NCBI RefSeq assembly: GCF_003334385.1
Contig: NZ_QOWN01000001.1
Source: Escherichia coli
GTDB taxonomy: Bacteria > Pseudomonadota > Gammaproteobacteria > Enterobacterales > Enterobacteriaceae
DNA: 64,000 bases
Direction: 5' to 3' (one strand)
Shown here piece after piece: positions 1 through 34,446 of this stretch. The notes beneath the pieces were generated by a model. The model was not told the origin of the DNA. It saw only the letters and a list, made by a program, of their open reading frames with translations, and ran no database searches. The stretch's first letter is position 1. Every line of letters begins with the position of its first letter. The translations under genes and the position numbers were made by a program.

Positions 1-1188
<1,188 letters not shown>

Positions 1189-1312
1189 AAAAGTTTGATG
1201 CTCAAAGAATTAAACTTCGTAATGAATTACGTGTTCACTCTTGAGACTTGGTATTCATTTTTCGTCTTGCGACGTTAAGAATCCGTATCTTCGAGTGCCC
1301 ACACAGATTGTC

Positions 1313-1332
1313 TGATAAATTGTTAAAGAGCA
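1313..1332 (-). promoter_or_regulatory. rrn leader boxA antitermination element
   Basis: Reverse complement of 1313..1332 reads TGCTCTTTAACAATTTATCA, the canonical rrn boxA, lying between the P2 promoter and the mature 16S 5' end. Confidence 0.85.
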
Positions 1333-1369
1333 GTGCCGCTTCGCTTTTTCTCAGCGGCGCGGGGTGTGC

Positions 1370-1397
1370 ATAATACGCCTTCCCGCTACAGAGTCAA
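1370..1397 (-). promoter_or_regulatory. rrn P2 promoter (-35 TTGACT, 16-bp spacer, -10 TATTAT)
   Basis: Minus-strand hexamers at 1392..1397 (TTGACT) and 1370..1375 (TATTAT) with a 16-bp spacer, followed by a GC-rich discriminator. Confidence 0.8.
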
Positions 1398-1487
1398 GCA
1401 TTTCTTTGCTTTTCTCTGTTGAGATTCTCAGGAGAACCCCGCTGACCCGGCGGCGTGTTTGCCGTTGTTCCGTGTCAGTGGTGGCGC

Positions 1488-29326: not shown

Positions 29327-31156
29327 ATGTGTGGAATTGTTGGCGCGATCGCGCAACGTGATGTAGCAGAAATCCTTCTTGAAGGTTTACGTCGTCTGGA
29401 ATACCGCGGATATGACTCTGCCGGTCTGGCCGTTGTTGATGCAGAAGGTCATATGACCCGCCTGCGTCGCCTCGGTAAAGTCCAGATGCTGGCACAGGCA
29501 GCGGAAGAACATCCTCTGCATGGCGGCACTGGTATTGCTCACACTCGCTGGGCGACCCACGGTGAACCTTCAGAAGTGAATGCGCATCCGCATGTTTCTG
29601 AACACATTGTGGTGGTGCATAACGGCATCATCGAAAACCATGAACCGCTGCGTGAAGAGCTAAAAGCGCGTGGCTATACCTTCGTTTCTGAAACCGACAC
29701 CGAAGTGATTGCCCATCTGGTGAACTGGGAGCTGAAACAAGGCGGGACTCTGCGTGAGGCCGTTCTGCGTGCTATCCCGCAGCTGCGTGGTGCGTACGGT
29801 ACAGTGATCATGGACTCCCGTCACCCGGATACCCTGCTGGCGGCACGTTCTGGTAGTCCGCTGGTGATTGGCCTGGGGATGGGCGAAAACTTTATCGCTT
29901 CTGACCAGCTGGCGCTGTTGCCGGTGACCCGTCGCTTTATCTTCCTTGAAGAGGGCGATATTGCGGAAATCACTCGCCGTTCGGTAAACATCTTCGATAA
30001 AACTGGCGCGGAAGTAAAACGTCAGGATATCGAATCCAATCTGCAATATGACGCGGGCGATAAAGGCATTTACCGTCACTACATGCAGAAAGAGATCTAC
30101 GAACAGCCGAACGCGATCAAAAACACCCTTACCGGACGCATCAGCCACGGTCAGGTTGATTTAAGCGAGCTGGGACCGAACGCCGACGAACTGCTGTCGA
30201 AGGTTGAGCATATTCAGATCCTCGCCTGTGGTACTTCTTATAACTCCGGTATGGTTTCCCGCTACTGGTTTGAATCGCTAGCAGGTATTCCGTGCGACGT
30301 CGAAATCGCCTCTGAATTCCGCTATCGCAAATCTGCCGTGCGTCGTAACAGCCTGATGATCACCTTGTCACAGTCTGGCGAAACCGCGGATACCCTGGCT
30401 GGCCTGCGTCTGTCGAAAGAGCTGGGTTACCTTGGTTCACTGGCAATCTGTAACGTTCCGGGTTCTTCTCTGGTGCGCGAATCCGATCTGGCGCTAATGA
30501 CCAACGCGGGTACAGAAATCGGCGTGGCATCCACTAAAGCATTCACCACTCAGTTAACTGTGCTGTTGATGCTGGTGGCGAAGCTGTCTCGCCTGAAAGG
30601 TCTGGATGCCTCCATTGAACATGACATCGTGCATGGTCTGCAGGCGCTGCCGAGCCGTATTGAGCAGATGCTGTCTCAGGACAAACGCATTGAAGCGCTG
30701 GCAGAAGATTTCTCTGACAAACATCACGCGCTGTTCCTGGGCCGTGGCGATCAGTACCCAATCGCGCTGGAAGGCGCATTGAAGTTGAAAGAGATCTCTT
30801 ACATTCACGCTGAAGCCTACGCTGCTGGCGAACTGAAACACGGTCCGCTGGCGCTAATTGATGCCGATATGCCGGTTATTGTTGTTGCACCGAACAACGA
30901 ATTGCTGGAAAAACTGAAATCCAACATTGAAGAAGTTCGCGCGCGTAGCGGTCAGTTGTATGTCTTCGCCGATCAGGATGCGGGTTTTGTAAGTAGCGAT
31001 AACATGCACATCATCGAGATGCCGCATGTGGAAGAGGTGATTGCACCGATCTTCTACACCGTTCCGCTGCAGCTGCTGGCTTACCATGTCGCGCTGATCA
31101 AAGGCACCGACGTTGACCAGCCGCGTAACCTGGCAAAATCGGTTACGGTTGAGTAA
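29327..31156 (+). CDS. glmS: glutamine--fructose-6-phosphate aminotransferase
   Basis: 609 aa; N-terminal Cys (MCGIVGA) of the class-II amidotransferase domain plus two SIS domains. Confidence 0.98.
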
Positions 31157-31163
31157 TAAATGG

Positions 31164-31193
31164 ATGCCCTGCGTAAGCGGGGCATTTTTCTTC
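31164..31193 (+). terminator. glmS rho-independent terminator, coinciding with the attTn7 insertion point (unoccupied)
   Basis: Hairpin ATGCCC-TGCGTAAGCG-GGGCAT followed by TTTTTCTT, 8-37 bp downstream of the glmS stop. Tn7 is known to insert ~25 bp downstream of glmS; the spacer to pstS is only ~313 bp, so no element is present. Confidence 0.8.
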
Positions 31194-31261
31194 CTGTTAT
31201 GTTTTTAATCAAACATCCTGCCAACTCCATGTGACAAACCGTCATCTTCGGCTACTTTTTC

Positions 31262-31403
31262 TCTGTCACAGAATGAAAATTTTTCTGTCATCTCTTCGTT
31301 ATTAATGTTTGTAATTGACTGAATATCAACGCTTATTTAAATCAGACTGAAGACTTTATCTCTCTGTCATAAAACTGTCATATTCCTTACATATAACTGT
31401 CAC
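31262..31403 (+). promoter_or_regulatory. pstS promoter region with Pho boxes (PhoB binding sites)
   Basis: Tandem CTGTCATA(A/T)A(T/A)CTGTCA(C/T)-type repeats at 31364..31381 (CTGTCATAAAACTGTCAT) and 31386..31403 (CTTACATATAACTGTCAC), plus upstream CTGTCACAG...CTGTCATC repeats at ~31262..31293. Confidence 0.85.
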
Positions 31404-31451
31404 CTGTTTGTCCTATTTTGCTTCTCGTAGCCAACAAACAATGCTTTATGA

Positions 31452-32510
<1,059 letters not shown>

Positions 32511-32520
32511 TAAAACTCCA

Positions 32521-32552
32521 GGCCGGGTACGGTGTTTTACGCCGCATCCGGC
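32521..32552. repeat. REP (repetitive extragenic palindrome) element
   Basis: GGCCGGGTACGGTGTTTTACGCCGCATCCGGC has the typical REP GCCGGATG/CATCCGGC arms; located between pstS and pstC. Confidence 0.7.
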
Positions 32553-32593
32553 ATTACAAAATGACTTTGTAAACGCGTTTAACTGAAGAGTAA

Positions 32594-34446
<1,853 letters not shown>

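Follow-up and report, generated by a model that had tools for sequence, protein, structure and literature searches.

The DNA between positions 31121 and 31181 is almost certainly a canonical, unoccupied attTn7 site in a K-12-like E. coli. It was found in a window (the whole stretch of DNA that was analyzed, 64 kb) that covers the oriC–atp–glmUS–pst region of E. coli and carries, in this order, 16S rRNA, rbs, kup, ravA-viaA, asnA/C, mioC, oriC, mnmG, rsmG, and the atp operon, followed by glmUS, with glmU upstream of glmS, and then by pstSCAB-phoU, bgl, tna, rnpA, rpmH, dnaA, dnaN, recF, and gyrB. As long as no Tn7 is present, the DNA at the site is the end of glmS, an intrinsic terminator, and then the Pho-regulated promoter of pstS; its role for Tn7 is a potential one, and its actual role in the cell is presumably the termination of glmS. 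The observation is thus correct and ordinary: the empty attTn7 has been a known reference site since the 1980s, and the present copy adds nothing to what is already known of Tn7 or of the locus.

The glmS end and the TnsD site

The gene that ends at the site is a genuine glmS, as the TIGR01135 family matches the full open reading frame, and the same gene is annotated as glmS in the collinear locus of strain N18-04097. Since the glmS stop codon, TAA, occupies 31154-31156 and pstS starts at 31470, the spacer between the two genes (31157-31469) measures exactly 313 bp, in agreement with the approximate figure of the sequence-only reading. A sequence comparison of 29900-32700 with K-12 MG1655 showed a sole mismatch, at 30947, where the window has A and K-12 has G, changing codon 541 (GlmS Gly541Ser). 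This nearby substitution aside, the TnsD site, the interval that follows it, the point of insertion, the terminator, and all 313 bp of the spacer are the same as in K-12, so that the site itself is without differences, and natural copies of Tn7 use this same insertion point. Of note, the Gly541Ser change sits 174 bp upstream of the TnsD site, and N18-04097, which has the same base as the window at 30947, encodes the GlmS protein WP_016232369.1.

Features of the glmS-pstS region, with positions in the window
Feature	Position	Strand	Evidence
glmS CDS (glutamine--fructose-6-phosphate transaminase, 609 aa)	29327..31156	+	NCBIfam TIGR01135, 897 bits, cutoff 418, full length
TnsD-binding sequence, attTn7 +58 to +23, CCGCGTAACCTGGCAAAATCGGTTACGGTTGAGTAA (predicted binding)	31121..31156	+	natural target-site duplication plus +23..+58 definition
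Interval between TnsD site and insertion point, 20 bp	31157..31176	+	position from natural Tn7 junctions
K-12-type variable segment, 206 bp, with glmS terminator and Tn7 landing point	31159..31364	.	homology breaks versus lpf strains
glmS rho-independent terminator (predicted), stem 31162-31187, GTAA loop, then TTTTTCTT	31162..31193	+	terminator scan; fold
Tn7 insertion point, attTn7 -2 to +2, GCGGG, single copy, uninterrupted	31177..31181	+	HD12480 junctions
Two tandem Pho boxes (putative), pstS promoter (CTGTCATAAAACTGTCAT, CTTACATATAACTGTCAC)	31364..31403	+	CTGTCA motifs; direct repeat D2
pstS CDS, right-hand border of spacer	31470..32510	+	NCBIfam NF008171, 747 bits, full length; annotation

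The coordinates of attTn7 were set with the naturally occupied site of E. coli HD12480 as a ruler. In the numbering of Mitra, McKenzie and Craig (PMC2918618), position 0 is the middle of the target-site duplication, and positive numbers run in the direction of glmS. The duplicated GCGGG of HD12480 corresponds to 31177-31181 of the window, and position 0 is therefore 31179, with which the glmS stop codon ends at +23. The minimal TnsD site with full target activity, defined on the K-12 sequence, extends from +23 to +58 and lies wholly inside glmS (PMC2918618); in the window, these 36 bp are the last 11 codons of glmS and the stop codon. The numbering could be checked against the bases shown to matter in the TnsD site, which are +31, +33, +42, +43, +45, +51, and +54 (PMC2918618): Table 1 of that study gives C at +31 and T at +42, +43, and +51, and the complement of the window at 31148, 31137, 31136, and 31128 reads C, T, T, and T, as predicted. 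All 36 bases, the key ones included, are identical (36/36) to those of K-12 and also to those of the Tn7-occupied strains HD12480 and ST18. Based on this identity to an experimentally tested sequence (PMC2918618), we infer that TnsD would bind here and that TnsABC+D would target the site.

For a Tn7 element entering this chromosome, the chemistry described in the literature would run as follows. TnsD would bind the 36 bp at 31121-31156, a sequence whose conservation follows from its coding for the C-terminal active-site peptide of GlmS, and would recruit TnsC onto the next ~20 bp, in keeping with the footprint of the TnsC-TnsD complex, which covers the stretch from the TnsD site to the insertion point (PMC2918618). 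The TnsAB transposase would then join the ends of the element to staggered positions around 31179. The expected product has the right end of Tn7 beside glmS and duplicated GCGGG flanks inside the 3' arm of the terminator, and no gene would be damaged.

The empty state and the landing point of Tn7

No trace of Tn7 was detected in the window. The terminal 12-mer of Tn7, TGTGGGCGGACA, allowing ≤2 mismatches, has 4 matches in 64 kb versus 5.6 expected, none of them in the spacer, and blastn of the whole window against the full 14,067-bp Tn7 gave no match. A blastn-short comparison of the spacer with both ends of Tn7 yielded at best 10 nt (E 0.09), and tblastn of TnsA-E against the window a best E of 0.22, both at the level of chance, so no Tns protein is encoded. 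The spacer holds no duplicated 5-mer that could mark an insertion, GCGGG being present once only, and a repeat search for arrays resembling the ends of an element recovered only the CTGTCA repeats of the Pho boxes. As the window carries neither element ends nor tns genes, shows no 5-mer duplication, and is contiguous across the site as in K-12, the site is unoccupied, as the sequence-only reading had claimed; the two features that it had named as refuting this claim, Tn7 terminal repeats and a 5-bp target-site duplication, were sought in the spacer and are absent.

An empty site might be secondary, in that it once held Tn7 or another island that has since been lost. About 70 genomes with a K-12-type spacer do carry Tn7 at precisely this point, and homologous recombination with an empty allele can remove an element without leaving a mark. 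On the other hand, the spacer is base-for-base identical to that of K-12 and of thousands of genomes, GCGGG is single, and no residual end sequence is seen; with Tn7 present in only about 2% of genomes, past occupancy also has a low prior. We consider such a history extremely improbable and retain the reading of an attTn7 that is simply unoccupied, against which no feature of the sequence speaks.

Occupied sites show where Tn7 lands in this sequence. In HD12480 and ST18, a 14,067-bp Tn7 lies between glmS and pstS and is flanked by copies of the GCGGG found at 31177-31181 of the window. The element carries tnsABCDE, intI2, and the dfrA1-sat2-aadA1 cassettes of a class 2 integron, with tnsA nearest to glmS, and its Tn7R end adjoins glmS in both strains. 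At the left junction of HD12480, ...GTAAGCGGG is joined to TGTGGGCGGACA of Tn7R (in longer form, ...CTGCGTAAGCGGG to TGTGGGCGGACAATAAAG...), and at the right junction TGTCCGCCCACA is joined to GCGGGGCATTTTT (...TTTTGTCCGCCCACA to GCGGGGCATTTTTC...); the junctions of ST18 are the same. Occupied sites of this kind, such as those of HD12480, ST18, and S17-1 with the class 2 integron dfrA1-sat2-aadA1, have the same chromosomal flanks as the window and differ from it by the 14,067 bp of Tn7 between duplicated GCGGG, where the window shows a single, element-free GCGGG. Real copies of Tn7 thus place the insertion point ~23 bp past the TnsD site, in one orientation and with a 5-bp duplication. We also noted that in the RefSeq annotation of the HD12480/ST18 copies (locus 13851-19492), aadA1 is frameshifted, intI2 is interrupted by an internal stop, and part of an IS256-family transposase is present.

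The insertion point is located in the 3' arm of the terminator hairpin, and the sequence-only reading had taken the TnsD target to be the 3' end of glmS together with this hairpin. The first half of that statement holds, and the second does not. In favor of a hairpin that is itself part of TnsD recognition, one can point to the insertion point inside the hairpin and to the coincidence of both in K-12-type strains. Against it, the minimal +23..+58 site lies wholly within glmS (PMC2918618), and Tn7 is found at the identical distance next to different terminators, with GGGCT duplicated instead of GCGGG. The latter result came from a distance test in strains which carry a long polar fimbriae (lpf) operon downstream of glmS: the junction predicted for this background was built, in which the 25 nt past the glmS stop codon run directly into Tn7R and GGGCT would be duplicated; 17 genomes contain it at 200/200 nt, and 13 further lpf-type variants match it at 95-97.5%. 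Because the same distance from the stop codon is used despite an unrelated terminator, the landing point of Tn7 is set by the distance from the TnsD site. A part for the hairpin in recognition can hardly be credited; in K-12-type strains, it receives the element without contributing to recognition by TnsD.

Contents of the glmS-pstS interval across E. coli

To place the window in its species, we surveyed 5,426 complete E. coli genomes. In 5,425 of them, an 801-bp query spanning the site (30900-31700) has a match, with 100% identity in six genomes, N18-04097 among them, and with 99.9% identity and collinearity in K-12 MG1655. An empty-site probe of 205 bp, centred on 31179, is intact in 3,000/5,426 genomes (55%, the empty K-12-type) and split in about 69, and a probe for the glmS-Tn7R junction is covered in 102 (1.9%), about 70 of which have a K-12-type background and about 30 an lpf-type background. 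Several laboratory strains (S17-1, ST18, and MG1655 derivatives) are found among the Tn7-positive genomes. The sequence-only reading had held the emptiness of the site to be worth recording; since only 102 of the 5,426 genomes carry Tn7, the Tn7-free state is the rule (98% of sequenced E. coli) and hence unremarkable. The proportions of 55% empty K-12-type, ~43% lpf, and 1.9% Tn7 provide a useful calibration, and the site should not be flagged as remarkable.

In the remaining ~2,350 genomes (about 43%), homology is lost at 31157/31158 and regained at 31360-31365. Five such loci were opened, and all five (5/5) contain a long polar fimbriae operon in the glmS-pstS interval: lpf2 in O157 and lpf-O113 in KO11FL, ST69, CRE1540, and N4220121. 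Published studies likewise put lpf2 (O island 154), along with related operons, in the glmS-pstS interval (PMC6033998; PMC5357955). The usual glmS-pstS cargo in E. coli is therefore the lpf2 or lpf-O113 fimbrial operon and not a Tn7-like element. The description of the site as a hotspot of genomic islands is thus supported insofar as Tn7 and lpf operons do occupy it, with the correction that what is commonly carried there is a fimbrial operon, which takes the place of the terminator region and does not belong to the Tn7 family.

The lpf strains share with the window the location of the interval, the end of glmS, the Pho boxes, and pstS, and their TnsD site shows 0-1 synonymous differences. They differ in having 5.4-6.9 kb of unrelated DNA, the lpf2 or lpf-O113 operon with its own glmS terminator, in place of the segment 31159-31364. 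The borders of the replacement are sharp, one lying 1-2 nt past the glmS stop codon and the other at the first pstS Pho box. Transposition into the Tn7 point does not account for the lpf operons, which involve no Tn7-type ends.

With lpf2 or lpf-O113 occupying the glmS-pstS interval in about 43% of complete E. coli genomes, and with this location also on record for lpf2 (O island 154; PMC6033998), one could ask whether the 313-bp spacer is a remnant left by the deletion of an lpf island. A simple internal deletion should have left flanking DNA that stems from the island, and no such DNA is seen: blastn with word size 7 of 31100-31480 against four lpf-type intervals showed no similarity in 31159-31359 (best E 0.86), and the glmS terminator of the lpf strains (GGGCTGCC...GGYGGCCC followed by a T run) is unrelated to the K-12-type one. 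An origin of the spacer by such a deletion is accordingly very unlikely. Compared at the sequence level, the K-12-type and lpf states look like alternative alleles and not like insertion or deletion derivatives of each other, and they look as if they were exchanged through the flanking homology in glmS and pstS. A wider proposal, to which we give a rather low probability, is that the glmS-pstS interval is a recombination cassette site, so far without detailed description, at which exchange would be driven by the conserved glmS end and pstS promoter. This two-allele reading concerns the neighborhood and not attTn7 itself.

One of the opened loci deserves a separate mention. In N4220121 (NZ_CP114227.1, 20565-30249), a wastewater isolate, lpfC-O113 is truncated beside an IS1. 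Furthermore, the locus lacks pstSCAB-phoU and the bgl operon, and the pstS portion of the probe is unmatched genome-wide; in a strain devoid of the Pst system, constitutive activity of the Pho regulon would be expected.

For the strain studied here, an intact and empty attTn7 means that it should be able to take a single-copy mini-Tn7 at a neutral and predictable position, 31177-31181. At the glmS-pstS locus, the strain is without the resistance genes of the Tn7 class 2 integron and without the lpf2/lpf-O113 fimbrial adhesin.

The terminator, the pstS promoter, and the surrounding window

The hairpin downstream of glmS has the makings of an intrinsic terminator, which it is predicted to be: it is G+C-rich, lies downstream of the stop codon, and is followed directly on its 3' side by a T run. 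In the consensus terminator scan, the stem comprises 11 pairs, 6 of them G-C, with the TTTTTCTT tail directly after it, and the extent previously given for the hairpin, 31164..31193, proved accurate, the scan placing the stem at 31162-31187. A 51-nt segment around the hairpin folds with -18.7 kcal/mol (z = -3.73), and 0/200 shuffles were as stable. Activity of the glmS terminator was reportedly described by Gay et al. in 1986, a study to which PMC2918618 refers. An Rfam scan of 30800-31800 at E ≤ 1 returned no RNA family and two sub-threshold matches ascribed to chance, one to RsmY, at 13.9 bits versus a gathering score of 57, and the other to a microRNA family.

At the other end of the spacer, CTGTCA occurs at 31364, 31375, and 31397, and a direct repeat (D2) has 22-bp spacing. 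We take the repeats in 31364..31403 to be the PhoB-binding boxes of the pstS promoter, an assignment made from established knowledge of this promoter. The Pho boxes are host regulatory DNA and lie outside attTn7. A second pair of CTGTCA motifs, at 31263 and 31285 (31263-31290), likewise 22 bp apart, was noticed ~100 bp upstream of the pstS Pho boxes and may represent extra PhoB half-sites. Strains with an lpf operon are without this pair, because it lies in the K-12-type segment.

Over its whole length, the window is collinear with N18-04097, with 99.94% identity in the first 50 kb and 99.96-99.98% beyond; a few small indels are confined to the first 1.4 kb. The start of the window falls inside a 16S rRNA gene (1-1424, minus strand). 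Finally, the gap between mioC and mnmG (16984-17361) contains three matches to the DnaA box TTATNCACA, at 17006, 17080, and 17186, and six such matches occur in the whole window versus 2 expected, which is consistent with the presence of oriC in the window.
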